Of a stretch of DNA of 58,837 nt, positions 3,698-53,239 are shown piece by piece. This DNA comes from a virus (taxonomy: Duplodnaviria; Caudoviricetes). The notes beneath the pieces were generated by a model, which was not told where the DNA came from, made no database searches, and saw only the letters and a program-made list of their open reading frames with translations. How positions within the stretch are numbered: position 1 is the stretch's first letter; each line of letters starts with the position of its first letter. The stretch is from IMG/VR virus record IMGVR_UViG_3300045119_000159, positions 1-58,837 of that record, one strand, 5' to 3'. Made by a program: the position numbers and the translations under genes.

Positions 3698-3706
3698 CGG
3701 AATAGG

Positions 3707-3735: not shown

Positions 3736-3750
3736 GCGGATCATTCCTAT
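3713..3750. promoter_or_regulatory. Operator pair (ATAGG-N6-CCTAT)
   Basis: ATAGGctttttCCTAT 3713-3728; degenerate AGCGGatcattCCTAT 3735-3750; 22-bp period. Confidence 0.8.
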
Positions 3751-3786
3751 TGGACTTTTTTTATAGGGCGCGCGAACAAGGTCAGC

Positions 3787-9617: not shown

Positions 9618-9664
9618 TCTGCCCATCCACGCCCATGATACCGAACCGCATTTGGAGAGTTCCA

Positions 9665-10545: not shown

Positions 10546-10801
10546 AGGATTGCCTCTTTGTTTCGGGGGTGAAGTGGGGTAGGGTTTTTGCATGCCTCAT
10601 TACGATCATTTCGCGCAAGACCTACAGTTCGTAGTTTGCCTCTTCGCCATTTATATCGGCGCTCTCTATGCCTGGATCAGACTGTGGGACTGGTGGCATC
10701 GCGAGAGCGACGAATTTGATGATCGCAGCACGATGTAAATCGCATTTCCGGGTAGGGCCGCGCGAGGCAGCCCTCCCATCCATGTGCTGTCCCCTTGGCG
10801 A

Positions 10802-11850: not shown

Positions 11851-12507
11851 TCACGCTGCCTTACCACTGAGGTCGGCGATCGTCCGCTCGATGTCTGCGG
11901 TATGGTCGCGCAATAGCTGCGCCACCAAGTCAGCGACAGGCTTTGTCATGGTTACAGTAACCATGCTGGTAGCTGGTACGGGCGTCGGCGTGACAACAGG
12001 CGTCGGGTCTGGCATGGGAACTCCGGGTTGTGGCGCAGCCTTGTATCCGGTGAGCGCGCGGTTTGCCCATTGCAGCCGCCGGTCATTGCCGGGCAGAAAC
12101 GTATCGGTGGTGCCGCCGGGAGCCTCGAACATGACGCCAAATGTGAACACGGCTGAATCGAGCGCCGTGGTCTTTTTCAGTTGCTCAAGGTCGTGCGCGT
12201 GGCTGGTGCGTAGTTCGTTTACGAGGTAGCCGTAATTTGCCTCGTCGGAACGCTGGTCGAGCTTCTGTGCGGCGCACCACGCCTCGAAGGCACGGCGGCG
12301 AGGACCGGTCCACTGAGCCCAACCCCACCCGCCTGATGGCGGCGTCTGCCCAACCTCTTGAAGCGTCTCGAAACCTGAACTCTCAAATCCGAGGTTGCCG
12401 ACGATGCCGGCGGCTTGCTCTGGCGTAAGACCAAACTCTTTGATCAGCGCGCCGACAACCCAGCCGCCACGCACCTCAAAGGAAGCGGGACGCGGCGGCA
12501 TATCCAT
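11851..12507 (-). CDS. Endolysin, Phage_lysozyme2 (tail-tip lysozyme) family
   Basis: QAAGIVGNLGFESSG, GWGWAQWTGPRR, FEAP motifs. Confidence 0.88.
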   Translation of the reverse strand: MDMPPRPASFEVRGGWVVGALIKEFGLTPEQAAGIVGNLGFESSGFETLQEVGQTPPSGGWGWAQWTGPRRRAFEAWCAAQKLDQRSDEANYGYLVNELRTSHAHDLEQLKKTTALDSAVFTFGVMFEAPGGTTDTFLPGNDRRLQWANRALTGYKAAPQPGVPMPDPTPVVTPTPVPATSMVTVTMTKPVADLVAQLLRDHTADIERTIADLSGKAA

Positions 12508-12508
12508 C

Positions 12509-12751
12509 TCAGTAGACCCACTCCAAAGGAATCTTGACGATCTGCCCCACATAGATCCGGTCTTTGTCCTTGATGTCAGGATTCAGTTCCAGGATCTCAC
12601 CCACCCTGCTAGCCACCTCATCGGCAGGGCATTCAGTCATTCCCTGAGCGATTGCAGATAGCGTATCGCCCTTTCGGATGACCACAGTGGCAGCATCCTT
12701 GTCAGCGGCAATGATGTGCGCCCATTCGAGAACTTCGTGAAAGAAACTCAT
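12509..12751 (-). CDS. LysM-domain protein
   Basis: VIRKGDTLSAIA...ILELNPDIKDKDRIYVGQIVKIP. Confidence 0.85.
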   Translation of the reverse strand: MSFFHEVLEWAHIIAADKDAATVVIRKGDTLSAIAQGMTECPADEVASRVGEILELNPDIKDKDRIYVGQIVKIPLEWVY

Positions 12752-12878
12752 GATTTGCCTCCCTACAGTGTCATTGACCAAGCGACACATGCCGCTAGGA
12801 TGATGACGGCCACAATCAATATCCAGCTGTGGCCGCGATTGATGATCCTCGCCGAGCGTGCCGCTCTGGTGCGGCGGC

Positions 12879-13040
12879 TCACCCGCGTAAGGCCGGCATG
12901 AAGATGTAGAGCCCGAGGAACAAGACCGCCAGCCACAGCAATCCGCCGTGTGCATACGGCCACTGTGAAGCGGGGCCATTCGGGAAGACCGTAATCAACG
13001 TGAGCAGCATGATGACTGCCCAAAGAACTTCAAGAATCAT
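12879..13040 (-). CDS. Small two-TM membrane protein (53 aa, below ORF-track cutoff)
   Basis: MILEVLWAVIMLLTLITVFP...LLWLAVLFLGLYIFMPALRG; GGAGG RBS. Confidence 0.65.
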   Translation of the reverse strand: MILEVLWAVIMLLTLITVFPNGPASQWPYAHGGLLWLAVLFLGLYIFMPALRG

Positions 13041-13171
13041 CACAACCTCCCGTGGCCGAAAAACAGATAAAGAATCAGCAAGATGCCGCCGATGCCGATG
13101 CCCCCGCCGGTTCCCCAGCGGGAATACCCAAAGATCAGCAGCAGCACAATGACGAGGATGATGATGTCCAT
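13040..13171 (-). pseudogene. Frameshifted DUF3309-like small membrane protein
   Basis: MDIIILVIVLLLIFG, then YSRWGTGGGIGIGGILLILIC and FGHGRL* after frame changes. Confidence 0.55.
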
Positions 13172-13181
13172 CGCATTTCCT

Positions 13182-13841
13182 TTAGACGTGGACCCTACGC
13201 CTGAAAACGTTGGCAAACAATCCTACCAGCGCGATCAGCACCCCGATCGCGAGAACAACCCACCCGAACATTTCATTCTGTCCCACGCTCTTACCAGAGA
13301 GGTCAGCCCTCGACTGAACGAGGGTCTTGACATCCTGCAACAGCGCGGCCAGAGCCGGATCGGCGGCGCTAGAGCGGCCTCGCGTCTCATTGGCGTACTG
13401 CTCCAACTTGGTCACTCGTTCCGACATATCACGGGCGTTCTGGTCTATCTTCAGTCCAAGGTCCGTCTTCAGTTCTTTCAGTTGGCTCGCCAGCAGCAAT
13501 GTCGATGAATCCTGGTTCGCCCGAATGACACGGGCCAGTTCCAGGTCGAACGTCAGCTTCTGCGCCGCGAGTTGGTCGATGCGACGTGTCTCGGCGTCGC
13601 GCGCCGCGTTCTGGAACCTGGTATCAGCGTCTCTAATTTCTATGTATCGTTTGGTTACTTCGGCAGCGAGATCATCGATACGTTTGACTGCGGCGATGAC
13701 GAGATCGAGAACGTTCTTGGTCGGGTCGATGGTTTGGTTACCATGCGAATCGACAGGTATGCCGGGCGCTGGCTGGGGGTATTGCCCCCACGCGGGACCG
13801 ATCAGAAGCGCAAGGACAATGAGTATGCGGGCCAGCATCAT
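13182..13841 (-). CDS. Exported coiled-coil protein with C-terminal TM helix
   Basis: Signal peptide MMLARILIVLALLIGPAWG; long helical region; C-terminal TM followed by RRR. Confidence 0.8.
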   Translation of the reverse strand: MMLARILIVLALLIGPAWGQYPQPAPGIPVDSHGNQTIDPTKNVLDLVIAAVKRIDDLAAEVTKRYIEIRDADTRFQNAARDAETRRIDQLAAQKLTFDLELARVIRANQDSSTLLLASQLKELKTDLGLKIDQNARDMSERVTKLEQYANETRGRSSAADPALAALLQDVKTLVQSRADLSGKSVGQNEMFGWVVLAIGVLIALVGLFANVFRRRVHV

Positions 13842-13860
13842 TCGCCCCTCAAGCAGCCAA

Positions 13861-14112
13861 TCATTCCTTGTTGACCGCCTCGATCCGCTCCGCTTCAATC
13901 TCTTTTATGCGGTCGGAAATGGTGTCAGCATCATCAGCGGCCATCTCGCGCAGCTTTGGTTCAGGCTTCGGCTTTTCGTGATCGTGATCGTCGCGCTCAA
14001 CGCATTGACGCTCGCCAAAATCATTGCCATTGTTCGGCCCCGGTACAGCGCCGCAGTAAAGGCAGCGCCCTCCCGGACCACGCGCCTCGCTATGCTCACG
14101 CACCTTTGCCAT
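13861..14112 (-). CDS. Hypothetical protein
   Basis: GGAGG RBS before MAKVRE; CLYC motif. Confidence 0.55.
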   Translation of the reverse strand: MAKVREHSEARGPGGRCLYCGAVPGPNNGNDFGERQCVERDDHDHEKPKPEPKLREMAADDADTISDRIKEIEAERIEAVNKE

Positions 14113-14281: not shown

Positions 14282-17200
14282 TCAATGCACCATCGCTGAG
14301 ATTGGCGCTGACGACGAGGGCGGCGGAGTACTGCACCCGCTGCCACCAAACGTCGTCTGAAAGGCATTTTTCGGACCAGCTTGGTAATACGCCCCAAGCG
14401 AGCTGTAACCAAAGTATGTTTGATAGTAATTCCACCTCGCATCAGCCTTCGCCATGACAGGTGCCATGCCGGTAACGCAACTAGCCAGCATTGCGTTCAT
14501 CGCGCCATGTCCGCTTGTGAGATATCCTTGTGGACCAGGATAATCAACCCAATACCCGATGGGCGCGTTGGCAGGCACGGAGTAGAAATCATAGATACCG
14601 GGGTGCGATGGATCTGACGTGTCAGTAGTATCGACGGCAGTTCCGCCACGCGTCGTCGCCAGATTGAACGAGTTGTAGTTCCCCTTGATCGAGGCAACAC
14701 CAGGATCAACGGCTATCGGGCAGGTAAAATGCGTTCCATCGGTAATGGTACAGGTGAGATTAACTCCTCCGATCCCGGCAGGGGAGCTACCGATGGCCGA
14801 ATTGCCGCTGATGCCGACCTTTCTGGTTCCGGACATGCCGTGCGCGGAACAGGTCTGAAACGTCTCCGTTCCTGATGACCAACTCATGCCGCAGATCGTG
14901 CCTGCGTGCATGTTGACGGCGTAGTACGCCTGGTGGACCTGCAATCCTCCCGGTGCCTTACTATTATTGAAACCTACAAAAGATACCCAATTGAACTTGT
15001 CGCCGTTGGCTGGGTTCCATGACTGGCCGCCAGGGGTTTGCCCCCCATACACGCTGTAGTCCGAGACCCCAAGAGCAAATGTTCCCGGCGAACCTGTCAA
15101 CCATTCTATCGGATGCGCTCCAACATCGGTCGCTATTCCACCATAGTAGTCGTCCGAGTCGATCGGGTTACTTATTATGTTAAATGAGCCGCTCGCCGGA
15201 CTAGCAGAGGCAACCTGCGGGAACGTAGCCGTAGTTGGACCCGTCCGCGTTAGAGTGACCGGCGTATTGGTATAGCCTGCTATTTGCGGTGTACCAGTCT
15301 CGCCCGTGAACATATTATCGCCACCGGTCTGTGTCAGGGTAGCTATGCCCCCAGCCCAAGTGGCGTTGACGCTTAAGAGACCGCCCCCAATGTTGTTGGT
15401 ATCGTAGGTTGATTCTCCGATAGCATACAGCGGATAATCAGTCCCAAACGTCGAGACGATATGCTGCCAGAACGTACTCTGACAGTTCATCAAAGTGAGA
15501 GCGTTGGCATCCTCATCATTGTTGTAGGCGTTCACCAGAACATTCATCATGTAGAACTGGTGGAACTGCCCACGATTGGTCCCGGTTGCCGTGTCCCATA
15601 AGCAGTTCGTGGCCGCGTAGCTATTTTGAAACGGGATGGCAGCGACAGGAAGAGCCGTGGATGCCTGCTGTTGGGCATGAAGATACGCCCCGATCTGTGT
15701 ACCTGCCGGATCGCTGTCAGGCCACCACGCATCGGCATCAGTGAGAGCGCGAAGGCTCCACGCCTGGAGCCGCATCCCCCAGCCGCTTATGTATGTGACG
15801 ACTCCGTAATAATCACTACCGTGAAACCCGATGGCGTTCCGATCTGTCGGGATCTGCCCAGAAATCGCATGGTTAGCGAACTCCATAGCCAGATCGAGAT
15901 ACTGCGGCTCACCTGTCATCAGATAAGCGCAGCTCGCGATGTCAGGCATATGTGAGAAGTCGGAGGTCCACGCATAGCGCGTTGCCAGACCGTGCGCGGG
16001 CGCGGTGAAACCCGACTGCCGCAGAACCTCGCCACCCCACTGAACCGTAGTTGCCGTTGAAGCTGGCATTCCGGTGTAAGAGTTGGCCGGATTACCAAGA
16101 TGAACTGGCCCGCGCGTCGCGAAGTCCCGCATATTAATCGAGAAGTTATTGGCCGATAGACCTATGCTCCGAATGGTCTTGTCATCGTTCAGGCTATGGT
16201 TATAGAAGGCCCGTGCACACCACGTAGTCCGGACCCCGATGCTGTCCCGCTCCCCCCCCTGGTTGAGTTGCTTTAGATATGGACCCTTCGACATATTGTT
16301 ATAGGCCAGGGTTCCGCCAGTGCCAGACCAAGTGCTGGGGTTTGGATCAGGAGGTGGCGATAGACTCATATTGTAGGGAGGCCAGACGTGTGTTGACTGG
16401 TCATAGGTAGGGTTGCCCTTGACGATGATCGGCGCGTCCGTCGCGGCTGTTCCCGGCACGTAGGCGTAGCGACCATCTGCCCCGGCAGTCCACAGCGTCC
16501 CAAAGTGCGGCAGCAACAACATCGGCTGAAAGGTAAAGGTGCCAGTCCCGCCATCGACGTTGCTTGGTAAATCACCCATATTACAAGTACTGAACTGCAT
16601 CCCCGTTGGGAAACTCTCGATGCAATAGACCGTGTTCGTCGAGAGGCCAGTGGGCAACGAGCCGCCGCCATTCGGGAACACATATCCCGTCAGCATGCAT
16701 TGCTGCGTGTCACCGCCACAATCGTTGTACGAGGCTGGTGTCGTTGTGGTCCAGGACCAACTGCCGATCCAGTTCGACGCAGTAATTGTCAGCGGGTTCG
16801 AGCCCTGTGGGAACGGCGGCGTAATCGTGGTCGGGCCAGCGCCATACTGGATGTTGAACGCCGAGAGACCGCGCCAATCCTTCGCTGGCGTGTCGTGGTT
16901 GTACCAAGGCTGCGTTAGGCGTCCGAGCACTCGATAGCCTGCCACACCACCACTCGCATCGAGAACCTGCTGGACGTACCAGTAGACTTCCATCTGCCCA
17001 TGTGCGGTGCCCGACTGCTCCACATGCGTCAGGATGCGATAGACCCTTCCACCCCCACCGTCGCCGTAATTGACCACCTCAACGTTGCGGGCATCGTTGG
17101 CGAGCTTCGCGTCCCAGCTTCCGGTCAGGCCGAAACTCGCTCCTTGACCTGTGATGTTCATCTGAATCAGCGCAGCGTAGAGCTGTGTCGGCGTTAGGCC

Positions 17201-19300
17201 CGAGGCCGCCGGGGCAGACCCGCCGTTGAACACGTTCGCGCTGACACACGCCACCGGAACCGCCTTCGGGAACGGCCCCGGCAGCACCCCCGCCATCTTC
17301 ATCGTGCCGTCAGACCAGTGCCGGATGTTGATAAAGGTCGCGGGCCACGGTGTCCCATCCAACGCCTGGAGTTGTGGGTACTGCCCCGCCGGGATGTCAC
17401 CCTTCTTGAACTCCAGCGGGAACATCGGCGGCGAGGGCGTGTTCGCCGTGACCGTGGAGCCGGAGGTCGAGCAGAGACTGATCGTGTTGACCACCGCTCC
17501 GGGTGCGCCAGCGCGGAACTGCGCCGGGCCAAGATCGAAGGTTGGAGAACGGGTTGACCCGAACATATCCTTCGTATTGTTTAAGTTCATTGAGGGGAAG
17601 CCGAATGCACTTTGCACATAACTAACCCCCAACCCACGTACAGGACTGCCCGCCACCAGCCGGGGATTGGTCGCCGCATCCACGAACGTCGCCGCCGCGC
17701 TCTGACTGAATAAGCTACTCGCTCCGCCAAATACCTGTCCAGTGAGGGCGACTGAAAGATATGGATCGGTGAAACTGGGGTTCGTGCTGGAGTTGGGCAG
17801 ATCGGTGGCGTTGTTGCTGGTCTGCCCCGTATTCCAGGTCGCAAAACAAGGAGTGTTTATGGCGACCTGATTTACCCAGCCGAAATACAGACTGTTGTTG
17901 AATGCCTTGGTAGCGCTGGACGTTCCCTGCACGTCGCCACACAGCGAAATATGCGCCGTTCTGTTGGCCCCGCTACCAAGCGAGATGTACGTCGTGTTGT
18001 AAACGAACCCGTTATATTTCCAGTAACTACCCGACGCGCCGACCGCATTGCTGCGATTGATGATGAGGTTGTTTCCGGATGTATTATATGCGTCCGCTCC
18101 GAAGGTGGTTGGACCGTCGCTGTCGAGGATCGAATTAGTCGCATTCTGTGAGTTATTGTGGCACCCCTCTAATCCACCGAAAGCAGGACTTGTCCCTCCT
18201 GTCGATTTGAGTTGCAGCCCGTCGAGCCAGACAAAGGTGTCGCAGCCAAAAACCGCGTCCTGGCCCACTCCGAGAATAGTGACTCCTTTGGTCTGATCTA
18301 TCGCGAGCGGATCGCTGGAGGCTAGATTATCCCGGAAGCTCTCACCCGCTGCCGGCACGATACGCACAGTCTGGTTGTCAAATCCAAACCCGCAGCCGGT
18401 CGTGTCCATCGTCTGACTGATAGTGCCAATGCAGAAGTTGGCATTGTCACCGACACGAGAGCTATGATAGTTGACACTTATCGGATTGGCCTCGTCTCCA
18501 ACACCGCCAGTATATGTTTGGGTGGCGAATCCTCCGTGCCAGGTCGTTATTGTCATCTGCACGTTTGAAACAATCTGCGCTCCTCGCCCAACAGACGGGT
18601 CACCGATAGTCGGATAGAGACTCTGTAGTTGATGTGGCAAGGCGCTGGCATGGGTGGCGTCCGAGGTATAGGGGATCTTGGCAACCGCGACCCAAGAACA
18701 ACCGCCGTCTGCCACAGATGAACCTGGAGTTGTCGGGCCAGGACCACTCGATGCCGCCACACATTTGAACGGTGCCGAGCCAGAATTAAACACATGCCCG
18801 CACACTCCGAAAACGTTGGTGTCCCAATAGCACTGCCGCCAAGCCCACCCGGCATTGACGACGATCTGCTCCTGCCAGTAGCACCCTGGCTGCGGGTTGC
18901 TGTCGTTCGTACAGGTGCCAACATTAGGTTGCCACTGTACTGGATCGTCCCACAGCGGCGAACTGAGCGTGATGTAATCGACCTTGACCAGACATTTCCA
19001 AGTTGCACCCCCATCAGTTATTCCGGTGCTCGGGCAGGACGAGATCGTCGGCTGGCTGCCGGCGCTGGTTCCTGCTGTCGTCAGTTCCAGCAGATATAAG
19101 GCCGAGCCATTGGTGTAGGCGGGAGTTCCACCCGGCGTCAGGCCCGGCCCAGCCAGTACGCGATCCCCTAGATGCCCGACATGGGTGTAGCTATGCGATG
19201 ACTGCCACGCAGGCGCGTTGGCGACGTTGAAGCTATAGGTGAAGGCGAGAGCCGGCGATGCACCGAGCGCGAACAGCAGTGCCAGGATGATACGCTTCAT
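14282..19300 (-). CDS. Giant secreted multidomain protein, candidate polysaccharide lyase/hydrolase
   Basis: Signal peptide MKRIILALLFALGASPALA; Asn-rich beta-helix-like part; FKKGDIP...WSDGTMKMA (RIFT/PcRGLX-like); SHMP...YLMTGEPQYLD and RLQAWSLR toroid-like motifs; many Cys. Confidence 0.75.
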   Translation of the reverse strand: MKRIILALLFALGASPALAFTYSFNVANAPAWQSSHSYTHVGHLGDRVLAGPGLTPGGTPAYTNGSALYLLELTTAGTSAGSQPTISSCPSTGITDGGATWKCLVKVDYITLSSPLWDDPVQWQPNVGTCTNDSNPQPGCYWQEQIVVNAGWAWRQCYWDTNVFGVCGHVFNSGSAPFKCVAASSGPGPTTPGSSVADGGCSWVAVAKIPYTSDATHASALPHQLQSLYPTIGDPSVGRGAQIVSNVQMTITTWHGGFATQTYTGGVGDEANPISVNYHSSRVGDNANFCIGTISQTMDTTGCGFGFDNQTVRIVPAAGESFRDNLASSDPLAIDQTKGVTILGVGQDAVFGCDTFVWLDGLQLKSTGGTSPAFGGLEGCHNNSQNATNSILDSDGPTTFGADAYNTSGNNLIINRSNAVGASGSYWKYNGFVYNTTYISLGSGANRTAHISLCGDVQGTSSATKAFNNSLYFGWVNQVAINTPCFATWNTGQTSNNATDLPNSSTNPSFTDPYLSVALTGQVFGGASSLFSQSAAATFVDAATNPRLVAGSPVRGLGVSYVQSAFGFPSMNLNNTKDMFGSTRSPTFDLGPAQFRAGAPGAVVNTISLCSTSGSTVTANTPSPPMFPLEFKKGDIPAGQYPQLQALDGTPWPATFINIRHWSDGTMKMAGVLPGPFPKAVPVACVSANVFNGGSAPAASGLTPTQLYAALIQMNITGQGASFGLTGSWDAKLANDARNVEVVNYGDGGGGRVYRILTHVEQSGTAHGQMEVYWYVQQVLDASGGVAGYRVLGRLTQPWYNHDTPAKDWRGLSAFNIQYGAGPTTITPPFPQGSNPLTITASNWIGSWSWTTTTPASYNDCGGDTQQCMLTGYVFPNGGGSLPTGLSTNTVYCIESFPTGMQFSTCNMGDLPSNVDGGTGTFTFQPMLLLPHFGTLWTAGADGRYAYVPGTAATDAPIIVKGNPTYDQSTHVWPPYNMSLSPPPDPNPSTWSGTGGTLAYNNMSKGPYLKQLNQGGERDSIGVRTTWCARAFYNHSLNDDKTIRSIGLSANNFSINMRDFATRGPVHLGNPANSYTGMPASTATTVQWGGEVLRQSGFTAPAHGLATRYAWTSDFSHMPDIASCAYLMTGEPQYLDLAMEFANHAISGQIPTDRNAIGFHGSDYYGVVTYISGWGMRLQAWSLRALTDADAWWPDSDPAGTQIGAYLHAQQQASTALPVAAIPFQNSYAATNCLWDTATGTNRGQFHQFYMMNVLVNAYNNDEDANALTLMNCQSTFWQHIVSTFGTDYPLYAIGESTYDTNNIGGGLLSVNATWAGGIATLTQTGGDNMFTGETGTPQIAGYTNTPVTLTRTGPTTATFPQVASASPASGSFNIISNPIDSDDYYGGIATDVGAHPIEWLTGSPGTFALGVSDYSVYGGQTPGGQSWNPANGDKFNWVSFVGFNNSKAPGGLQVHQAYYAVNMHAGTICGMSWSSGTETFQTCSAHGMSGTRKVGISGNSAIGSSPAGIGGVNLTCTITDGTHFTCPIAVDPGVASIKGNYNSFNLATTRGGTAVDTTDTSDPSHPGIYDFYSVPANAPIGYWVDYPGPQGYLTSGHGAMNAMLASCVTGMAPVMAKADARWNYYQTYFGYSSLGAYYQAGPKNAFQTTFGGSGCSTPPPSSSAPISAMVH

Positions 19301-19866
19301 TATTTGGTTCCCAAGACCGCAGTTGCGCTAGTGGTGCCGTTGGGGTTGGTACACGTCAGCTTGAACGACGTTATTCCGGGCGGGGGGGTAAACGATTGAA
19401 TGCCAAACTTGGAGCCGCCTGTAGTGAAATTATCCCCCGTGCAATTGTCGGCGTTATCAGTCATCCAGAATGCGGTTGCGGGTGGTGACTCTACTCTGAA
19501 CCCAAGGATGACGGGTAGCGGTGTCGGTGGAGACGAAAGCGGAGGCGGGTTCTGCAGCCCCGGATCGCTCGTCATAGCCCATGCAGCTCCGGTGAGCACC
19601 CACCACTGACTGTATGTGTTGAGGACGTACATCTTGCCGCCGTTGGCGACTTCGAGTTTAACGCCAGCCCCGCCCGCAGCAGGCAGCTGGTTATTGAGCA
19701 TGATGACGTTGCCGCCATTGGCGACGGCGGTGCCGAATGTCCAGGTTCCCGCCGCAGTAACGAGGTGGCCCCCACTAGCAACCGTGATGGTCGTGCCGTC
19801 AGGAGAGTTCTGTGCCCATGCCGAAACCGGCAGCAGCAGTAGTAAGGCTAAGAGTAGCTTTCTCAT
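19300..19866 (-). CDS. Secreted beta-rich protein
   Basis: MRKLLLALLLLLPVSAWAQ signal peptide; Pro linker; C-terminal Ig-like segment FKLTCTNPNG. Confidence 0.8.
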   Translation of the reverse strand: MRKLLLALLLLLPVSAWAQNSPDGTTITVASGGHLVTAAGTWTFGTAVANGGNVIMLNNQLPAAGGAGVKLEVANGGKMYVLNTYSQWWVLTGAAWAMTSDPGLQNPPPLSSPPTPLPVILGFRVESPPATAFWMTDNADNCTGDNFTTGGSKFGIQSFTPPPGITSFKLTCTNPNGTTSATAVLGTK

Positions 19867-19876
19867 GTGGTGCATC

Positions 19877-20839
19877 CTAATACCCGCCATTCGTCCGCAT
19901 GTTGCTGGTGAGCGCCGCCCCGCTGGACGAGGTGTCGGCAGTGTAAACCGCCATTTGGAGAAAGCTGGCCGTCAGCGTTCGAGCGGAGGAGTCATTGCAT
20001 ATATTCAAACCTAAACTAGAGAAAGCAACATTTGTACCGACCGTCCCGGTGGCGGTTGATCCATTGATCGACATAGTGCCCGTCCCGCCACTCACTGGTT
20101 GAGTGCCGATCATCGAGTAGAACGTTCCGACACTGACGGCCGGTGGGGCGACGAGAGTCGTTCCGGCGTTGTAGATTGCGTCTATGGTGGCGTTGGAGAA
20201 GCCGAGAGTCGGACCTGGGGACGCCGCATCAAAGGCTGGCCCCGCACTCATCAATGGGCCGTAAACACCAGCAGTCGAAACATCGACCCTTACCGCTGCA
20301 AGCATCGAGGTGGGTTGGGCGTTGCCTGGAAAGTCACCGTTGGCTGTGTGTGTTGTTCCAGTACATTTGAGGGCGGGAATAGTCCCGATAGCATTGGGGA
20401 TAAAATAAAGATACTTGCCCGTGGCCGATACCATATTACAAAGAACTGTGCCGCCGCCACAGTAATTCCCCGCACTACCATCAGTATACGCGATATGAAC
20501 CAAGCAGGCATCCACCCCCGGCGTCGAACCGCAGGGATTGCCTCCTCGCGTCTGCGTGCTTGACACGATACCGGTCGTTGCGTCTGATACCGCGTCGGCG
20601 CAGTTGCCCTCGGCGGTATCGCACAGGTTGAGCATCGCCTGGCCGCGTGTGGCGGCGCTACAAGCAATCGTGCCCCAACAACCCTTGGCCCCAGGCAGCA
20701 CATCTAGGATGCCCTGGAAGCCACCACCGCCACCGCCACCGCCCTTGGTCCCCGGACCCGGCCACGGCATTCCAACTTGGGCCAGCGCGATCCCAATTGG
20801 CAATAAAACGGCAGCGATTGTGAGAAGTATTCTCCTCAT
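19877..20839 (-). CDS. Secreted lectin-like protein (ConA or arabinofuranosidase-B-like sandwich)
   Basis: Signal peptide, GMPWPGPG + poly-Gly linker, Cys-rich beta domain. Confidence 0.65.
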   Translation of the reverse strand: MRRILLTIAAVLLPIGIALAQVGMPWPGPGTKGGGGGGGGFQGILDVLPGAKGCWGTIACSAATRGQAMLNLCDTAEGNCADAVSDATTGIVSSTQTRGGNPCGSTPGVDACLVHIAYTDGSAGNYCGGGTVLCNMVSATGKYLYFIPNAIGTIPALKCTGTTHTANGDFPGNAQPTSMLAAVRVDVSTAGVYGPLMSAGPAFDAASPGPTLGFSNATIDAIYNAGTTLVAPPAVSVGTFYSMIGTQPVSGGTGTMSINGSTATGTVGTNVAFSSLGLNICNDSSARTLTASFLQMAVYTADTSSSGAALTSNMRTNGGY

Positions 20840-21564
20840 CGAACGACCCGCCAGTTAAGTGTGATAGCGCCAGGGGTCACTGAGGAACTCGTGTTGTTAC
20901 AAACCTTGAAATTTACGTTGTTTGAGGTCGGATAAGCGATGATGGTCAGCATCCCCGCTGTCGCTGGGATGTACCCGGTGACTCCTGTTGGATCGCCATT
21001 GAACGATGCCACGACAACATCGGTCGATGCAGCGCCAGTGGCCGACGTGGTGACGACCGTCGCGCAGGTGGCGGAGGTTATCGCGCCAGTGCCGAGAGCG
21101 GATGTCCCAGATGCTACTACCGCCGAACTAGGGGCACCCAAACTCAAATCTACCGTTACGGTGGAGCTGCCGGCAGCCGTCGCGAGCGCTCGCCCGATGA
21201 CCTGTGAAGAGGCGGGACGGGTTGCCCCCGCATCATGGCAGGCACCAGCAGTTGTGGCTGAATTGGTAACGTAATGCCCGGCTGTGATCGCCGTGGCATC
21301 GAAGACGCAGTTGACTTTACCAATCTTGGCAACCAGCGCATTGCCAGTCGTACCTGCGCCCGCATAGACGATCCCGGCAATATCATCAACATCCGTCGTG
21401 GCGGCGATAATCGCAGTAGAGGGGGCACCGGTCAGCTTCGCCAGCTTGTTGATAGTGGTGCCGGTGCCGGCCTCGTTAGCAATGTCAATAACAGCTTGCG
21501 CCATCGCCGGAGTGGCGGAAAGCAGCGCTCCAACCAGGAGCGCCCCGAGTAGTTTAATTTTCAT
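20836..21564 (-). CDS. Secreted structural-like protein with capsid-cement-like domain
   Basis: Signal peptide; ITAGHYV...G...VIGRAL...TVTV motif; second beta domain. Confidence 0.7.
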   Translation of the reverse strand: MKIKLLGALLVGALLSATPAMAQAVIDIANEAGTGTTINKLAKLTGAPSTAIIAATTDVDDIAGIVYAGAGTTGNALVAKIGKVNCVFDATAITAGHYVTNSATTAGACHDAGATRPASSQVIGRALATAAGSSTVTVDLSLGAPSSAVVASGTSALGTGAITSATCATVVTTSATGAASTDVVVASFNGDPTGVTGYIPATAGMLTIIAYPTSNNVNFKVCNNTSSSVTPGAITLNWRVVR

Positions 21565-21749
21565 AGGTTTGCTCCTAGATTAAGAACAACGACCGTCCCG
21601 CCGTTGACCACGATTAAACCGTTCGGAGTTGGCGCAACCGTTGGCGGACCACCTACAGCGCCCACATAAAAGTAAGTGAATTGCGCCCAAGCCTGCGGAG
21701 CAGCAGAAATAGCCACCATCATGATGAGCAAAGCGATGTATCTCATCAC
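21561..21749 (-). CDS. Small secreted protein
   Basis: Signal peptide ending AWAQ; coupled at both ends. Confidence 0.7.
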   Translation of the reverse strand: MMRYIALLIMMVAISAAPQAWAQFTYFYVGAVGGPPTVAPTPNGLIVVNGGTVVVLNLGANL

Positions 21750-23443
21750 AACGCGCCCTTAACTGCCATTGCGCAGTTAATCGTTGTAGTCGTGTCAGCA
21801 AAGCAAGAGATCACATCTTTGGCATTTCCGTTTGTGCTAAGGCTCGGTGCCGTGCCCCCAGCCCATTTGTAATTTGCCTGCCATGTTACTGTCCGACTGC
21901 CAACCGAGTCCTGCGTCAGAGCTACCACATAGGACTGCCCAGCCTTGACGTTTGTAGGATTGGCGACTGTTAGATTTCCCGCGCCGAAAGTTGCCGTGAC
22001 GCTATTCGATGCGCTGAAATCGGGTGTCAGCGTGCCTCCTGGGCTCTGCGCTCCACTTGCTGTAGGCGTGATCGCCTGCCCCTTTGTCCACGCTTGGCTT
22101 ACATCGAGAAAAGCGGCATCGGCGGGGGCTTGCCCGGCAACCCACGACCCGCTCAGGCTTCCAAACCCAAGCTGGACACAATTAAGGTTGTTTATGTCGA
22201 GGGAATTGAAGACTTGATTTGTGGCGCAGGCTTTGGCCGCAAGCGCAGAACTGCTCTCGACCGTCCAAGTGTGTATACCAGAGACTCGGAACACAAGCCC
22301 GACGCCCTTATTGGTATAAGGCCCAACGCTCGCTACGTTGCCTCCGGTGCCAACGATCCCTCCTGCACTATCCGCCGCATTTACCGCTACCGTAAGAGTG
22401 GCGCTCCCGCCGACAAACCCACCATCGGCAATCGAGATTGCCGTATCCGTACTGACTGCCGTGATCGCCGGCAGCGTCAGCGTCCCGGTCGTCCACCCCG
22501 ACGCAACCTTGACTAATCGTGTGGCGTTGGCGATAGCCGCTGTGCCGGTGACGGCCTGTGGACTTGTCTGCCCGTCCACACCGAAACCTGGACCGCCGCC
22601 ACCACCTCCTGTCCCATTCGATGCGGCAGTGATGCGTCCTTTTTGATCGATGGTTGCATTGAGATTGGTATAGCTGCCAGGAGTGACTGCCGTGCTCGCA
22701 AGGCTCATCGGAGCCGTACCGCCACTGCCGTTCGTGGTAACGAGATCGGAACCGAGCAGGCTTAAGGTCGTTGTGCTAGTCTGGGTGCGCGTACCGTCCG
22801 TGACTGCGGCAATGCCCCCGACAATCAGTATATTAGCGCAGGTAGTCGCCCGTCCTTTTGCGTCATAGGTACATTGTGGGACATGAGTGGAATCGCCGTA
22901 GGTTCCTGGGGTGGCATTCGCCGCAGCCAATGACATTGGCGCGGTGCCACCAGAACCGTTTGTTGTGACAAAATCGGCCGCTGTCAGACTAAGGGTCGTT
23001 GCGCTAGTCTGGATGTGCGTTCCATCCGTGACTGCGGCAATGCCACCGCCGCCGGCACCTGAGATGAGGACATTTGTGCAGACGGTAGCGCGCCCTTTCG
23101 CATCAAACGTACACTGCGGAACATGGGTTGCATCGCCATAACTCCCGGCACCAACGCCGGATATCGAGAGCGTGAAAGGGGTCGAGCCGGTCCCGGCTGC
23201 CGTACCGTCCCCGGTCAGCGCAGTGATGCCACCACCGCCACCGCCACCACCCAGCGCCGACGCAAGGATATTGACCGTGGCACCGCCGCGTATCAGCATA
23301 ATCATATCGTTGGTCTGGGTACTTGAGACCACCGGTCGGCCCGCGAAATAACTAAGGAATTTCGACGTGAGCGTCGTCTGTGCATAAGCGACTGTTGACG
23401 CAATGAGCAACCCAGCGAAGACTGGCAGGATGAACCGCTTCAT
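21746..23443 (-). CDS. Tail-fibre-like protein with signal peptide
   Basis: MKRFILPVFAGLLIASTVAYAQ; three GSY...DxKGR fibre repeats; C-terminal TQDSVGSRTVTW...WAGGTAPSLS..D fibre domain. Confidence 0.8.
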   Translation of the reverse strand: MKRFILPVFAGLLIASTVAYAQTTLTSKFLSYFAGRPVVSSTQTNDMIMLIRGGATVNILASALGGGGGGGGITALTGDGTAAGTGSTPFTLSISGVGAGSYGDATHVPQCTFDAKGRATVCTNVLISGAGGGGIAAVTDGTHIQTSATTLSLTAADFVTTNGSGGTAPMSLAAANATPGTYGDSTHVPQCTYDAKGRATTCANILIVGGIAAVTDGTRTQTSTTTLSLLGSDLVTTNGSGGTAPMSLASTAVTPGSYTNLNATIDQKGRITAASNGTGGGGGGPGFGVDGQTSPQAVTGTAAIANATRLVKVASGWTTGTLTLPAITAVSTDTAISIADGGFVGGSATLTVAVNAADSAGGIVGTGGNVASVGPYTNKGVGLVFRVSGIHTWTVESSSALAAKACATNQVFNSLDINNLNCVQLGFGSLSGSWVAGQAPADAAFLDVSQAWTKGQAITPTASGAQSPGGTLTPDFSASNSVTATFGAGNLTVANPTNVKAGQSYVVALTQDSVGSRTVTWQANYKWAGGTAPSLSTNGNAKDVISCFADTTTTINCAMAVKGAL

Positions 23444-23444
23444 A

Positions 23445-23795
23445 CTATTGGTTCCGAACCGGAATGCGGTTGATCACAACGTAAACCGCCGTTGCAGTGG
23501 TGATGGCGAGGCGATAGCGCCCCGAAGGCAGGTAGGCGGTTGAGTACCCGGCGGCGGTAATGGGCGCTGCGGCCTGCACATAGGTCGAGCTATCGCCCGC
23601 CAGCTTTTGCAACGTGATATTGCCGGCGCTGAAAGTCGCGACGGCATCGATCCCATACAACCCTCCCGACAGCCTGAACTCGGCAGTCGTGGCAGAAATG
23701 TTGGTCGCGACATATTCTTCATCTGCCCATGCCGGAACGGAGACGCTCAGCAGGACAATAAAAAAGACGGCCAAAAGCCGCCCGACATGAGGCAT
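23445..23795 (-). CDS. Small secreted beta-sandwich protein
   Basis: Signal peptide ending PAWA; ATFSAGNITLQ...YRL motif seen in small phage structural proteins. Confidence 0.75.
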   Translation of the reverse strand: MPHVGRLLAVFFIVLLSVSVPAWADEEYVATNISATTAEFRLSGGLYGIDAVATFSAGNITLQKLAGDSSTYVQAAAPITAAGYSTAYLPSGRYRLAITTATAVYVVINRIPVRNQ

Positions 23796-23825
23796 GATGC
23801 GTTCCCCCGTTTGAAGAGGCGATCC

Positions 23826-24095
23826 GTGAAAGCGTTAGTAATGATCCTTAGCGTCGTCAGTTTGTTGACGGCTTGCGGCCACAAGAACGTCCTCTGGCAT
23901 CCGCCTGAAGGGACGGCTGGCCGGCAATACAATCAAGATCGGCTCGTCTGTCGTGGTGTCGCTGACTATCCGGCGAGTGCTGTCCCAGGCGGTGGATTAG
24001 GCGGCTTGCTGATGAATGCCGGCGCGGCTCAAGAGGCGCAGACCAGCTACATCAATTGCATGATGGCCGCCGGTTATACGCCGGAGTATCGCTAG
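23826..24095 (+). CDS. Lipoprotein on the opposite strand (moron or superinfection-exclusion candidate)
   Basis: GTG start, lipobox LTAC, QDRLVC...CMMAAGY. Confidence 0.7.
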   Translation: MKALVMILSVVSLLTACGHKNVLWHPPEGTAGRQYNQDRLVCRGVADYPASAVPGGGLGGLLMNAGAAQEAQTSYINCMMAAGYTPEYR

Positions 24096-35503: not shown

Positions 35504-37225
35504 TTAGAACCCCGAATAAGGGGGCCATCCTTGCTTCCGGGAGAAATTTCCGCGCCCATATCGAGCACTTACAAAGCGCCCGCCCAGCACACGCGGCACG
35601 TCCCGCTCGTCATCGGTTATCTGCGCCTCGGCACTAGCTGCCTTGAACGCCTCGAATTTGGCCTTGGCAACACCGGCCATCTTCGGGTCCGCAGAGGCTT
35701 CGCTATACTGTAGCCATGCGAGGACGGCATCGCGGAAGTTAACCGGCCACCGGGTTGCGTCGAGGCCAATCCGCGAGACGTAGCGCAGCACAACTGGCGA
35801 GTAATTCAAATGGAAGGCGTCGAGTTCGTCCCGATAGTCGATCTCCGTCCATCGCGACAGAAGGCCGTCCGACCAGCTCTTGTAAATCTCAATGGTGCGG
35901 AACCAATCGTTTGGCTTAATCACGCGGTTGGAATAACCGGGAGAAACCGAGCCATCCGAGACGGAATTGGGCTCGCGATCAACTCCAGGCACACTGTCAT
36001 CGGTGGTGAGTATGGTAATCCCGTCATCGGCCGTCAGAGGATTTCCCTCATCATCGGTGAGGAAGGTAACACTTGCAGCACGGAACGGATCGGTCAAAAC
36101 GACAGTCTTGATCGCAAACCGCCAACGACCCTGTTCCAGAAGTTTGGTGACAGCCTGGATGTAGGCTCCTGACCATTGGAAACGCAGGAAGGGGTCGTCA
36201 GGGATATCGTATTGGTCCTTCGCGGTCTTCAGCGCAAGCTGATATTCGGTCCCTTCAACTTGCTCTTTCTGGGGCTTCCCCTTGTCGTCGCTGCCCTCCT
36301 CTTCGCCGCCCTCGCCCTCCCACTCCAGATAAGCCGCAACGGCCTTCGTGATGGCTTCCGGCCATATGGTCGAGTCCAACCCATCGGTTGACACATACGA
36401 AAGCGTGAAGGCCGGTGTGTTCGTGCTCCAGCCGTTCCCCGTCTCGCGAATATCGAAGGGACATTGAAGACCGCCAAAGTTGATCCACAGACCTTGCGTA
36501 TTGAGATAATCCGCAGGGGCTACGAAATGATAGGCCCAGCCAACATCGGGAGTACCTGACTGCTGCGATATGTCGTACTGGACGGTCTTCAGGCTGAAAT
36601 CGAAATTGGCCCCGGAAATGACGAACCGCGCCGCGCGTAGAAATTCGCCGTTGCGCTGGTAGGGCAGCCAGAAATCCGGCGACATCGCATCGCGCTCGAT
36701 AGCCTCCGGTAGCAAAGAGGCGAATAGTTGCGACATACGCCCGGTCGCGCTGTCGCCACCTGTAACCCGCCTCGCGACGAGAAAGGCAAGGTAGGCTGCA
36801 ACGGTTTGCGCAAAGTGCTCGGGCCAAGGATGCGCCGTATAAGCCGGATCGGCGTAGTTTGAAGAAACATAACGCAGCGTCGGGGCCACCGTGATGTTAT
36901 AATTGAAACCGACACCTTGATCGCGTAAATCGAATGGACACTCCCGCCCGTCTGAGGCCGCAATATAGATGGCGTGCGGCTGAAGACAGTCGGAGGGAAA
37001 CAGCGATGCGTTGACGTAACCTGGCATCCCACCCAGGACGCGCGGCAAAGTCGTCGTCACCAGCGCGAACCGCCACGGTGCCTGCTTCAGAACGAACGCA
37101 ACTCCTTCATCCCAAGCGTCATCAAGCGCATAACGAGCCGTGATGTCGTCCGTCAGCGTCGCAAGCCGCACATCGCCCAGCAACCGAAGAACGTCGTTAT
37201 AAAGTCTTAATTTTGTAGCGGTCAT
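35504..37225 (-). CDS. Tail tubular protein A (adaptor), triplicated
   Basis: Three repeats of W/FxF..P.D..LxYVS...WP..F..AVAAYL. Confidence 0.82.
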   Translation of the reverse strand: MTATKLRLYNDVLRLLGDVRLATLTDDITARYALDDAWDEGVAFVLKQAPWRFALVTTTLPRVLGGMPGYVNASLFPSDCLQPHAIYIAASDGRECPFDLRDQGVGFNYNITVAPTLRYVSSNYADPAYTAHPWPEHFAQTVAAYLAFLVARRVTGGDSATGRMSQLFASLLPEAIERDAMSPDFWLPYQRNGEFLRAARFVISGANFDFSLKTVQYDISQQSGTPDVGWAYHFVAPADYLNTQGLWINFGGLQCPFDIRETGNGWSTNTPAFTLSYVSTDGLDSTIWPEAITKAVAAYLEWEGEGGEEEGSDDKGKPQKEQVEGTEYQLALKTAKDQYDIPDDPFLRFQWSGAYIQAVTKLLEQGRWRFAIKTVVLTDPFRAASVTFLTDDEGNPLTADDGITILTTDDSVPGVDREPNSVSDGSVSPGYSNRVIKPNDWFRTIEIYKSWSDGLLSRWTEIDYRDELDAFHLNYSPVVLRYVSRIGLDATRWPVNFRDAVLAWLQYSEASADPKMAGVAKAKFEAFKAASAEAQITDDERDVPRVLGGRFVSARYGRGNFSRKQGWPPYSGF

Positions 37226-50446: not shown

Positions 50447-53239
50447 TCAGAACGTGTACCCGATGCTACAGACATGGGCAGCAGACGCCGCCCCAGCCGA
50501 CGTTTGTAGCTGAACACTTATAGCGTCTGTGGGAGCGACAGGGATGCCGGAGAGCGCCACAATCCAGATAGGTCCGGTGCTCTGACTAGCTCCGGTAATT
50601 ACTCCGCTAAGAGGTCGCGCGATCGAACTCTGGAAAATTGTGTAGGTGTAGGTTTCGCTCCCACTCGGTGCTGCCGAGCTTTGGCAGGTTAAATATTGGA
50701 TGAAGCCGACAAACGGAACCTCGAACGCCAGCGCCGTGCTGCTGCCGAGGGTCGATATACCGCTTGGCCCGAGATATACCGTCGTGGCTGCCGGGACTAA
50801 ATTAGGACCGCTCGACGCGCTGATTATCTGCGTCCCGTGCGGGACCGACATCCTGACGGGGCGGGTTGTTCCAGGGTTGGACCCGACCGCTACATCAAAC
50901 TCGTCTTGAAAACCTGGAATGCACGGCGTCACCGACGCGGTTGCCGGAGGCGGCGGCGCTATATAAGAACAAATTATTTGATTATTCGGGTCGTTGAAGT
51001 TTGTGACGCCCCTTAACTTGATAAGGTTGAAGCCGCCATCCCATGATTGATTGAGGTTGGGACCATTTATATCGGTGTAATAAGCGTCGATGACGGTCCC
51101 GGCCTCGGCGAACCCGTTGGGAGCATCGCCGATCTGGACGCCACCTTGCTCGAAGGCAGGGCCGACATTCCAATCTGCATAAGTTCCCGAACCCAAGATG
51201 GTGTCTATATTCGCGACCAACACGCCGGTAGAAACGTTATATGAAGTGACGACGCCGCTCATAAAATTGCCGCCGTTGGCTTGCTCCCGTAATTGCACGA
51301 AGCCGCCAGCCTTGAAGCCCATCCCGGTCGGCACGGTAAACGACTTGCTGCCAGTACCGACCGCCAGCGATGTTGAAGACGTTACATTTGGCAACACATA
51401 CATGATGGAGTTGTACAGCATCACGGCCTGACCGCCAGGGCCGCGGGAGAGAACCTGATAGGCGTCGCCGCCGGAGATCAGGGTGCCATGCCCAACAAAC
51501 CCCTGCCCGGCGAGACTCTCGCTGATCAGGCCGTATTTGGGCCAGAACACGTCAGAGCTGCCGACGTAGCCACCACCGAACAACTCGGCCTGGCTGAACT
51601 TAACGTTGCCGCTCGGGCCGACCTTGACGTTAGCTCCGGTTCCATTCGGTTGGGCCATCGTGATAGGCGGGCCGGGCCAGCCGATCAGCATGTCGCCCAA
51701 ACGGGAATCGGTTGGCCCATTAAAAAACAGACTGCCGCCGCCGATGCCGCCGGGCATGTCGGGATCGCCACGCTGGTTGCAACGGATCAGCTGCGTGCCG
51801 CCAAGATTGCGCACGATCCCATCGACGTCATTGGCAGCAACCAGCCAGCCAAAGGCATTGTGCTGCTCCCAGCACCAGCCCCGAGTATTAAAGATATCGA
51901 CATTCTGCAGCGTTATGCCTTGCGCGTAGCTGTAGAATCCCCGCCCGTTCGGGTTCGCCGTGTTGTTAGGCGCGTTGCCATCCAGGGTAATATCGCGCAG
52001 GCTGAGCCGCCACGGGCCACCGGCTGCCGTGCCGTCATTGACCCCAGTGTTGATCAACTGAGTGATATGCCAGTTGGCGAACGGCCCGGCCGCGCCCGAG
52101 CCGCGCAGAACGTTGACGACGAGCTGCTTCGTTCCGGCATTGTATGAAGTCACCGTGCCGGTCAGCCAATTGACCGCGCCGGCACCGCCATTGGACACGA
52201 CAGCCTGAATCCATGCTCCGGGGTTGAACGTGTTGACGGGTGCCGCTTCGAGTATGAAGACCACCGACAGAGGGCCGCCGGAAAGCGCCGGAGGCGCAGG
52301 AGGGCCGCTATAAACCGTCGCCGGGATCGAGACCGATGAGGTGCTGTCCGCCGCGACAACCAGGTTGGCGACACCATCGGTTCGCAACACATCTGTCGGC
52401 GAGTTGTTACACAATTTCAGCCGCGACACCTGTTTCGAGGTGCCCGCCAGCGTAACCAGATTCTTCAGCGTAATCCCCGTTGAACACCCAACGACCGAGG
52501 TTCCGACCAAACTGATCGTCGCCCCGCCGATGCTGCTCGCCCAGGCGATCGCCGCGTTCGTGCATGCCGTGTCGTCCGTCGCGCCATCAACCCGACAACC
52601 CCACATCCGGGTGTCGTAGATGCCATCGTGCGTCGGCTCCAACCGCCAGCGCCCGGTGCCCGGTGCGGCGTTCGGCACCACACAGGAACCCCCATCGTCT
52701 ACGCACGCCGAGGCACCGTCCCAGTAATATAGAGTCGCGGGTGAATCCCCTGCCGAGGTGTATGCAGTCCGCAACACTGCGGTATAAGCACCCGCCGCCA
52801 GAGCCTTCAGGGAAGCGTGGTTAGGTGTTGCCGGCATCCCGTTGACGGTGCCAGTCGGGATGTTGATGCCGTTTACCCGAAACAGGATCGTTCCGGCGTT
52901 GCTCGCCCCGCCGAAGCTGTCCAGCGAAAAAACCCCGTTGCCCGAGCCATCGTGCCCAAGGCAAAGCGCACTGTAAGGCCCCAATGTGCTGGCCGTGTTC
53001 GAGCATACGCCCGGCCCAAAATGATCGGTGATCCCAAACGGGCTCAGTCCCAAACCCGAGACCGAGTCGCCAAAAACCCCGTTCCTCGAAGCGTCCTGAA
53101 TCAGCCCGTTCGAGTCGAACCGGGGCACGTGGTAGGGAACCATCGTGCCAGACTGGAAAACAGGAATGCCCTGCCCGAATGCCAGCGACGGCAAGGCAAG
53201 CGCCAAGGCCGCCGACAGCGCATAGCGGTGCAGGGTCAT
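50447..53239 (-). CDS. Tailspike-like beta-helix (pectate-lyase-like) protein with signal peptide
   Basis: MTLHRYALSAALALALPSLAFGQ; WGCRVDGATDDTACTNAAI; LRDITLDGN; two VTSYN..T..L modules. Confidence 0.8.
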   Translation of the reverse strand: MTLHRYALSAALALALPSLAFGQGIPVFQSGTMVPYHVPRFDSNGLIQDASRNGVFGDSVSGLGLSPFGITDHFGPGVCSNTASTLGPYSALCLGHDGSGNGVFSLDSFGGASNAGTILFRVNGINIPTGTVNGMPATPNHASLKALAAGAYTAVLRTAYTSAGDSPATLYYWDGASACVDDGGSCVVPNAAPGTGRWRLEPTHDGIYDTRMWGCRVDGATDDTACTNAAIAWASSIGGATISLVGTSVVGCSTGITLKNLVTLAGTSKQVSRLKLCNNSPTDVLRTDGVANLVVAADSTSSVSIPATVYSGPPAPPALSGGPLSVVFILEAAPVNTFNPGAWIQAVVSNGGAGAVNWLTGTVTSYNAGTKQLVVNVLRGSGAAGPFANWHITQLINTGVNDGTAAGGPWRLSLRDITLDGNAPNNTANPNGRGFYSYAQGITLQNVDIFNTRGWCWEQHNAFGWLVAANDVDGIVRNLGGTQLIRCNQRGDPDMPGGIGGGSLFFNGPTDSRLGDMLIGWPGPPITMAQPNGTGANVKVGPSGNVKFSQAELFGGGYVGSSDVFWPKYGLISESLAGQGFVGHGTLISGGDAYQVLSRGPGGQAVMLYNSIMYVLPNVTSSTSLAVGTGSKSFTVPTGMGFKAGGFVQLREQANGGNFMSGVVTSYNVSTGVLVANIDTILGSGTYADWNVGPAFEQGGVQIGDAPNGFAEAGTVIDAYYTDINGPNLNQSWDGGFNLIKLRGVTNFNDPNNQIICSYIAPPPPATASVTPCIPGFQDEFDVAVGSNPGTTRPVRMSVPHGTQIISASSGPNLVPAATTVYLGPSGISTLGSSTALAFEVPFVGFIQYLTCQSSAAPSGSETYTYTIFQSSIARPLSGVITGASQSTGPIWIVALSGIPVAPTDAISVQLQTSAGAASAAHVCSIGYTF

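Follow-up and report, generated by a model that had tools for sequence, protein, structure and literature searches.

Tailed-phage particles assemble in the cytoplasm. In known phages, add-on parts of the kind that bear leaders in the present case can bind to particles that are already finished; decoration proteins do so, and can also be added in vitro. Lysogenic-conversion morons of the lambda Lom and Bor type, whose products have leaders, come with their own promoter and terminator and stand apart from the late operon. For the predatory bacterium Bdellovibrio bacteriovorus, the portions at hand of one report (Caulton et al. 2024, PMC10769870) describe the MAT fibres, a family of phage-fibre-like trimers with mosaic, disulfide-containing tips, in which a signal peptide stands directly before a conserved N-terminal domain of about 130 amino acids; since the MAT fibres described there each have a signal peptide, such fibres can be made by the Sec route. 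Sections of a study of Porphyromonas phages (Matrishin et al. 2023, PMC10367356) present genes with Sec leaders whose cut exposes a glutamine, and read them as an adaptation to the export machinery of the host. In a paper on phage JC1 SignalP was applied to the lysis genes only. The subject here is a block of seven minus-strand genes, p1 to p7, running from position 23795 down to 14282 of an uncultured viral contig (IMG/VR record IMGVR_UViG_3300045119_000159; the window, below, is its whole length of 58,837 bases). Every one of the seven products starts with a Sec-type leader, and several have the folds of virion parts. Judged from sequence features, export of the block proteins is probable, and it is tentatively proposed that the block encodes add-on parts of the virion that would join the particle after export.

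Leaders were recognized with a strict, home-made test that asks for a lysine or arginine before a 10-residue stretch with a mean hydropathy of at least 2.2, starting within 14 residues, free of aspartate and glutamate and followed by a small-x-small site. That all seven open reading frames (ORFs) have Sec-type leaders had been proposed in an original prediction made from the letters alone, and all seven pass; their small-x-small sites were read by eye, and residues −3 to +1 of each are in Table 1. Background rates were taken from ORFs of at least 100 amino acids, for which every start within the first 60 codons was tried. Of such ORFs from unrelated phage loci, in two sets, 6 of 329 and 11 of 441 pass (17 of 770, about 2%), compared with 8 of 55 in this genome, and seven consecutive leaders are therefore far above chance. 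The other leader-bearing ORFs of the genome are a 930-amino-acid protein, a 238-amino-acid protein, a protein with a borderline PEP-CTERM tail and an ORF with a lipobox. Within the block, neighbouring genes overlap by 1–14 nt or lie 1 nt apart, so the tight linkage noticed earlier stands and translational coupling is indicated. Tat export was considered and dropped, as twin arginines occur in some leaders only and the full motif, on reading the leaders of the block and of the p4 family, in none. A separate transcription unit for the block was likewise set aside: promoter-like sites (7, with 6.0 in shuffled sequence) and terminator-like sites (8, with 9.4) are at chance level.

It is very improbable that the leaders are an artefact, whether of true starts that lie downstream or of alanine- and leucine-rich, high-GC sequence that mimics leaders. 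The G+C content of 55–63% and the frequency of spurious ORFs in the genome would suit such an explanation, but the test that flags all seven block genes flags only 8 of 55 ORFs of the same genome and about 2% in control loci. Starts 3′ of the hydrophobic segments, which the original prediction had named among the outcomes that would undo it, are not indicated, for p7 has no alternative in-frame start within its first 70 codons and the starts in the block are coupled to the preceding stops. Relatives from other contigs, moreover, keep the leaders.

This conservation, which the original prediction had proposed as a check, holds for relatives of p2, p4, p5 and p7. Among the 19 best matches to p2, 15 have a leader and two more seem to be cut at the 5′ end; with a lenient test, leaders are found in 33 of 119 non-self matches. 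Of the 148 best non-self representatives of the p4 family 117 have one, and many of the remainder begin at non-ATG codons or in mid-domain. Read by eye, seven of the eight matches to p5 have a hydrophobic leader, with the same mature start directly after the cut in five of the family, and so do all seven matches to p7. Three of the p7 relatives are without the first 600 residues and have the leader placed straight on the core, and two have other N-domains. Identity among the p7 relatives is 0.50–0.52 in the leader as against 0.90–0.97 in the next 40 residues; drift of the leader before a conserved mature start is the way signal peptides evolve, unlike a binding surface. In p2 relatives, an N-terminal fibre motif is at residue 1 in leaderless fibres and directly after the predicted cut in leader-bearing ones, and a profile of the motif built from six leaderless fibres matches residues 22–65 of leader-bearing P0029 (3e-6) as well as P0004 (4e-4), P0003 (0.011) and P0012 (0.014). 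Further searches for relatives added little: two scans of species genomes and one of IMG/VR, the latter with the p7 alignment, came back empty, the fibre-tip alignment brought up only two loci from metagenomes, close but short (L036 and L037), and a scan with the ejection protein gave a single distant relative, L001.

The leader heuristic cannot separate a signal peptide from a signal anchor, and one p2 relative, P0009, has a longer, anchor-like N-terminus. The leaders might thus be N-termini that stay uncut, either as anchors that hold the fibres in the inner membrane until lysis or, with the proteins remaining on the cytoplasmic side, as helices for trimerization or for a socket in the tail, and the established assembly of tailed phages in the cytoplasm would sit well with this. 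It is nonetheless unlikely: in all seven proteins the hydrophobic core is short and a small-x-small site follows, and the leader is poorly conserved where the residues after it are well conserved. The cysteines and the residue at +1 speak against it also, pointing instead to cleavage and to an oxidizing compartment.

The statement that five of the seven proteins contain several cysteines is accurate, and the counts in the mature parts (8 in p2, 4 in p4, 10 in p5, 2 in p6, 30 in p7, and 14 in the 930-amino-acid protein) are all even. The same tendency is seen in the relatives of p2, with the mature part approximated as what comes after the hydrophobic core plus two residues. The median is 8 cysteines in leader-bearing members (27 even, 5 odd, 1 with none) and 1 in leaderless members (31 even, 35 odd, 20 with none; Fisher p 4e-4 for even and odd between the two groups), with P0002 and P0006 counted as leaderless though they are seemingly cut at the 5′ end. 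In the fibre tip there are two or four cysteines in 14 of 14 leader-bearing members that have a significant tip match, whereas of 25 leaderless members 15 lack them altogether, 8 have a pair located elsewhere and 2 a single cysteine; a second pair, present in four members of the tip alignment and gone from the others, is always gained or lost as a pair. Even and paired cysteines tied to leaders are the pattern expected of disulfides formed in an oxidizing compartment. A separate observation is that the 1623- and 923-amino-acid ejection-type proteins (24092-31734, minus strand) have no cysteine in 2,546 residues.

As to the residue exposed by the predicted cut, glutamine is at +1 in five of the seven block leaders and in seven of nine leaders in the genome. 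Beyond the window, 76 of 101 members of the p4 family that pass the strict test have a small-x-small site followed by glutamine, as do 121 of the 234 ORFs with leaders in related viral loci. The available part of a study of Bacteroidetes (Bochtler et al. 2018, PMC5837995) sets out a Q-rule, glutamine at +1 of signal peptidase I substrates, and the five block leaders have this feature at their predicted signal peptidase I sites. A motif for Bacteroidota O-glycosylation is not enriched (14 seen, 14.2 expected). A G+C content of 55–63% is high for most Bacteroidota. None of the seven proteins has a Pfam match, at E up to 0.1, to the C-terminal sorting domain of the type IX secretion system or to PEP-CTERM. 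In relatives of p2 and p4 the C-domain always stands at the end of the protein, but by fold that of p4 resembles tailspike tips and lectins.

Scans of p1–p7 against Pfam, PHROG and NCBIfam returned almost nothing besides the p2 tip, the last ~125 residues, which match PHROG tail-fibre family phrog_9017 (9.6e-07) and are 35–47% identical to annotated fibres of Caulobacter phage S2B and of the cyanophages SS120-1, PSS2 and S-CBP2; in precomputed Pfam labels some relatives of the tip have the T7 tail-fibre N-domain, PF03906. Both fibre features picked out before, the DxKGR repeats and a WAGGTAP stretch, are in p2 and within domains common to tail fibres. The cement-like domain that had been suspected proves, by fold, to be the N-domain of p4 (residues ~20–147). 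In a model of p4 with a predicted local distance difference test (pLDDT) score of 88.8, this domain matches 13 decoration or head-fibre chains with Z of 10–13, the best being the HFTV1 decoration protein (Z 13.3, root-mean-square deviation 2.6 over 116 aligned residues), with the phi29 gp8.5 base and the phi29 gp12 C-fragment each at Z 11.2, and Foldseek adds a capsid chain of cyanophage Pam3 (E 3e-4). The domain is also found inside the long fibre proteins P0006 and P0007 and, given this and the gp12 fragment, it may form a knob on trimers rather than bind the capsid. The C-domain of p4, 95 residues long, ~70% conserved, always terminal and with an invariant pair of cysteines, gives middling matches at Z 5–7 to tailspike and depolymerase C-domains (tailspike C-domains 5.5–7.1), a pyocin fibre tip and lectins. 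An exhaustive search at E up to 0.001 puts the p4 family at 4,574 representative clusters, whose members range from 164 to 3,944 amino acids; scans of eight large members gave no significant Pfam family and a single weak PHROG match.

The body of p5 is a jelly roll of the LamG/concanavalin type whose nearest clusters are 95–100% viral. For p6 no family was found save a weak stretch resembling a large adhesin. Likewise p7 has no family and, by profile search, no solved relative (0 matches), a Pfam scan of four of its relatives gave nothing, the model of its core is poor (pLDDT 39.1), and the Atlas holds neither a model nor a usable match. An assignment of p7 as a polysaccharide lyase, for which the basis was solely a beta-alpha-beta order of secondary structure, was reduced to a bare lead.

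Docking on the tail adaptor, also proposed as a check by the original prediction, was modelled for p2. The adaptor, a 573-amino-acid protein of tubular-A type, was combined with three copies of p2 residues 22–110, that is, with no leader, in three runs and with three controls. All three runs give an interaction prediction score from aligned errors (ipSAE) of 0.67, with 0.00 for the best control, and agree in at least 95% of contacts, with a pLDDT of 72 for p2; of 78 solved complexes 51 attain the mark set for the tool, and of 108 mismatched pairs 2 do. The adaptor consists of three tandem units (self-matches of 36% identity, E 2e-11 and 5e-8), and it is an acidic, hairpin-like insertion in the third, residues 386–413, that contacts p2 residues 24–32 and 56 of all three copies in the model. 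The p2 side of the modelled interface thus begins at the third residue after the predicted cut, and that it was obtained without the leader is a further point against uncut anchors. The model supports p2 as a virion fibre that would plug into the tail by its mature N-terminus.

The evidence for export, however, fits equally well with proteins that are exported but stay free. Built from fibre modules, as lectins, depolymerases or receptor-blocking decoys, and periplasmic or released, these might mask or alter the host surface, block superinfection, stop progeny from sticking to debris or clear the matrix round a burst cell, without being parts of the particle. The genome does have other envelope-directed genes (the PEP-CTERM-type gene and two lipoprotein-type ORFs) and a temperate-looking gene set, and p7, a very large protein, shows nothing fibre-like. 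Bacteria, too, use Sec-exported, phage-fibre-like trimers at their surface, with a signal peptide on 21 of 21 Bdellovibrio MAT fibres in the portion of that report at hand (PMC10769870), and the sections of the Porphyromonas study referred to above read the signal-peptide genes of those phages as surface modifiers (PMC10367356). Yet p2 docks on the tail adaptor in the complex model, the block is in the position of fibre genes in a genome where no other fibre was recognized, and its coupled genes form an operon of late type in which promoter and terminator signals do not exceed chance. In relatives the leader precedes the very motif with which leaderless virion fibres begin, and seven to eight genes, those of the block amounting to ~3,170 codons, would be a large burden for accessory functions. 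On balance free exported proteins are considered a rather unlikely explanation, though the leading rival.

Virion parts that join the particle after export are preferred because of the docking model and because leaders are on add-on-type parts only. Export with oxidative folding, as first conjectured, gains good support from four independent, indirect lines of evidence, namely leader conservation, even cysteine counts, glutamine at +1 and placement of the leader before the fibre motif. The route itself is inferred, from passage through the membrane, cleavage and disulfide bonding to when and where the parts attach, and would run as follows. Each block protein would be made with a Sec signal peptide and passed unfolded through the inner membrane, where signal peptidase I would cleave it, mostly exposing glutamine, and folding and disulfide bonding would take place in the periplasm. 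Head, tail tube and ejection proteins would meanwhile be built in the cytoplasm as usual, and the two pools would meet only once lysis proteins encoded downstream open the inner membrane and wall, upon which the mature N-terminus of the fibre could dock on the adaptor. As part of the same tentative proposal, p2 would be the fibre for the tail adaptor, and p4, p5, p6, p7 and the 930-amino-acid protein would form a lectin-like, decoration-like and probably enzymatic set. An extension of it, that the phage of the window and a very large group of uncultured phages build their particles in two compartments, with every add-on part (fibres, lectin tips, decoration-like trimers and enzymes) passing through Sec and being attached only at lysis, is more speculative still; particles would in that case become competent for adsorption only at release, with appendages hardened for extracellular life.

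Several points weigh against attachment after export. The leaders were recognized with a heuristic of our own, p1, p3 and p6 are without relatives or folds, and the N-terminal profile of leaderless fibres misses the p2 of the window, which aligns by eye only. In the relative L001, whose ejection protein is 32% identical, the position of the block is taken by an ordinary tailspike with no leader, and a leaderless fibre or head decoration could be among eight small genes of the window at 40278-44018. A job with three copies is unlike those on which the complex tool was calibrated, likeness to solved adaptor–fibre complexes can yield a pass, and of 44 blind-drawn pairs of neighbouring genes with which the tool itself was tested, 7 passed too. 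Attachment after export must also compete with dilution at lysis.

The leader trait is by no means confined to the window. IMG/VR contigs with the C-domain of p4 number 129, and 80 of them were kept as loci (75 with a blastp match to p4 among their called ORFs, the other 5 being kept in the ORF counts). Leaders are present in 234 of 1120 of their ORFs of at least 100 amino acids, ten times the control rate (Fisher p 2e-38), and the six loci that were read have runs of three to seven co-oriented leader genes beside structural-looking and lysis-looking genes. Few of the 80 have structural proteins in common with the phage of the window, so the trait crosses phage lineages. A different architecture is seen in L002, a viral contig of 7.6 kb, with a terminase, a portal and then a leader-bearing fibre and a p5-like protein; its ORF in portal position (1568-3967) has 799 amino acids and a long extra C-terminal part.

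The window has a minus-strand late region of podovirus type. Its head part runs from the small terminase, the 930-amino-acid protein and the large terminase to the portal, eight small genes, a gene in scaffold position and the capsid protein (a match to Pfam Phage_capsid_2, 2.4e-18); then come the adaptor, a 902-amino-acid nozzle of tubular-B type and internal virion proteins that include the 923- and 1623-amino-acid ejection-type proteins. The nearest cultured relatives are distant, the nozzle being ~25% identical to that of Burkholderia phages KL4 and BcepC6B, Ralstonia phage RpY1 and epsilon15-like phages. G+C content ranges over the genome from 55 to 63%, and no tRNA genes were found in the contig. 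The p1–p7 block, between ejection genes and lysis genes, has the position of podovirus fibres. It was described at first as sitting after the ejection genes, which is right as to fibre position, but the two do not abut directly: a gap of ~300 bases intervenes, with a lipoprotein-like ORF on the opposite strand. The features are collected in Table 1.

Table 1. Genes of the leader-bearing block and other features of the window (positions are those of the whole stretch; in leader motifs the slash marks the predicted cut)
Feature	Position	Strand	Description
p1	23445..23795	-	116 aa (amino acids); signal-peptide-like leader, AWA/D; no Cys; no family found
p2	21746..23443	-	565-aa fibre; leader AYA/Q; N-terminal anchor-like segment, glycine runs, D-x-K-G-R repeats; C-terminal tip ~125 aa
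p3	21561..21749	-	61-62 aa; leader AWA/Q, then 39-residue uncharged body
p4	20836..21564	-	242 aa; leader AMA/Q; decoration-fold trimer-type domain (~20-147) and lectin/tailspike-tip-like C-domain (147-242)
p5	19877..20839	-	320 aa; leader ALA/Q; conserved mature N-terminus; 10-Cys part; LamG/concanavalin-like jelly roll
p6	19300..19890	-	196 aa (188 aa if third ATG); leader AWA/Q; 2 Cys
p7	14282..19300	-	1672 aa; leader ALA/F; 30 Cys; variable N-terminal 600 aa, then conserved core ~1050 aa
Tail adaptor (tubular A-like), 573 aa	35504-37225	-	residues 386-413 are 35987..36070
930-aa protein	50447..53239	-	leader AFG/Q, 14 Cys; between small and large terminase genes
238-aa protein (219 aa from inner ATG)	13182..13898	-	hydrophobic leader AWG/Q, charged helical body, C-terminal membrane segment
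LysM-domain protein	12509-12979	-	lysis gene 3′ of block
Phage lysozyme	11851-12552	-	lysis gene 3′ of block
Lipobox ORF	23787..24095	+	lipoprotein-type leader, lipobox ending in Cys; between 1623-aa ejection gene (24092-28963) and p1

Whether p3 is a real gene is uncertain. The 930-amino-acid protein, for which family evidence amounts to one weak PHROG tail-protein match, is by its predicted leader an eighth protein of exported type, at a second locus. The lipobox ORF upstream of p1, which in its longest form overlaps the p1 start and has no family match, could be a moron of superinfection-exclusion type. The 238-amino-acid protein downstream of p7 is probably part of the lysis cassette and not a fibre; together with a 58-amino-acid ORF that has a double membrane segment, it separates the block from the lysozyme genes (13040-13898, minus strand), and from their sequences the two look like holin- or spanin-type lysis parts of unusual build. 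Further along, at 9635-10261 on the plus strand, is the leader-bearing protein with a PEP-CTERM tail, borderline in that it scores 18.1 bits with NCBIfam (cutoff 16) and 18.9 with Pfam (cutoff 20.7), and convergent to its gene is a small lipobox ORF (10258-10593, minus strand); the two are possible host-surface genes, and the tail is a hint of an exosortase in the host. The eight small genes between portal and scaffold (40278-44018, minus strand) are rich in threonine, serine and glycine, and family scans of them gave nothing except a weak carboxypeptidase-regulatory-like stretch in 42574-42897.

Should export and oxidative folding of the outer, host-recognizing parts be borne out, a late step of particle building outside the cytoplasm would have to be added to what textbooks present as wholly cytoplasmic assembly of tailed phages, and infectivity would depend on the Sec, signal peptidase and Dsb functions of the host. 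Engineering and host-range work with the fibre genes of such phages would then need periplasmic expression for folding, and leaders together with cysteine parity would help to annotate the receptor-binding genes of the many phages from soil and water with fibres that belong to no family. The families concerned are large and unnamed: the p4 family alone, with its 4,574 representative clusters, has no Pfam or PHROG model in the members scanned, apart from the one weak PHROG match.

How, then, does the block compare with known systems? With leaderless podovirus fibres and tailspikes of the T7 gp17 type it shares the gene place after the ejection genes, the repeats and exchangeable C-terminal tip and, in the model, docking of the N-terminus of p2 on the adaptor; theirs, however, begin with the anchor segment and have tips with few or no cysteines, whereas here Sec-type leaders and paired cysteines are found. 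Decoration and head-fibre proteins (lambda gpD type, the phi29 gp8.5 base, HFTV1, Sf11, TW1 and Pam3) have the fold of the p4 N-domain, but the known ones are cytoplasmic and leaderless. As to morons of the Lom and Bor type, the genes of the block are coupled, and promoter-like and terminator-like sites are about as frequent as in shuffled sequence. In Porphyromonas phages the signal-peptide genes, as far as the sections referred to above give them, are for capsid, spanin and proteins of unknown function, and tail fibres are not named there. The MAT fibre family is the closest published system among the literature searched, with the difference that MAT genes, according to the portion of that report at hand, are chromosomal and serve the predatory bacterium's own surface, and the present block is in a tailed-phage late operon near ejection and lysis genes. 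A search of full-text literature turned up no report of tailed-phage fibres with signal peptides, in keeping with the earlier suggestion of an undescribed system, though supplementary tables of PMC10367356 and PMC10769870 might list more signal-peptide genes. Tail-fibre modules as such are already known and the assembly route is possibly new; what this window does add is a modelled docking site, a decoration-like fold behind a leader, a preference for glutamine at the predicted cut and the size of the p4 family.

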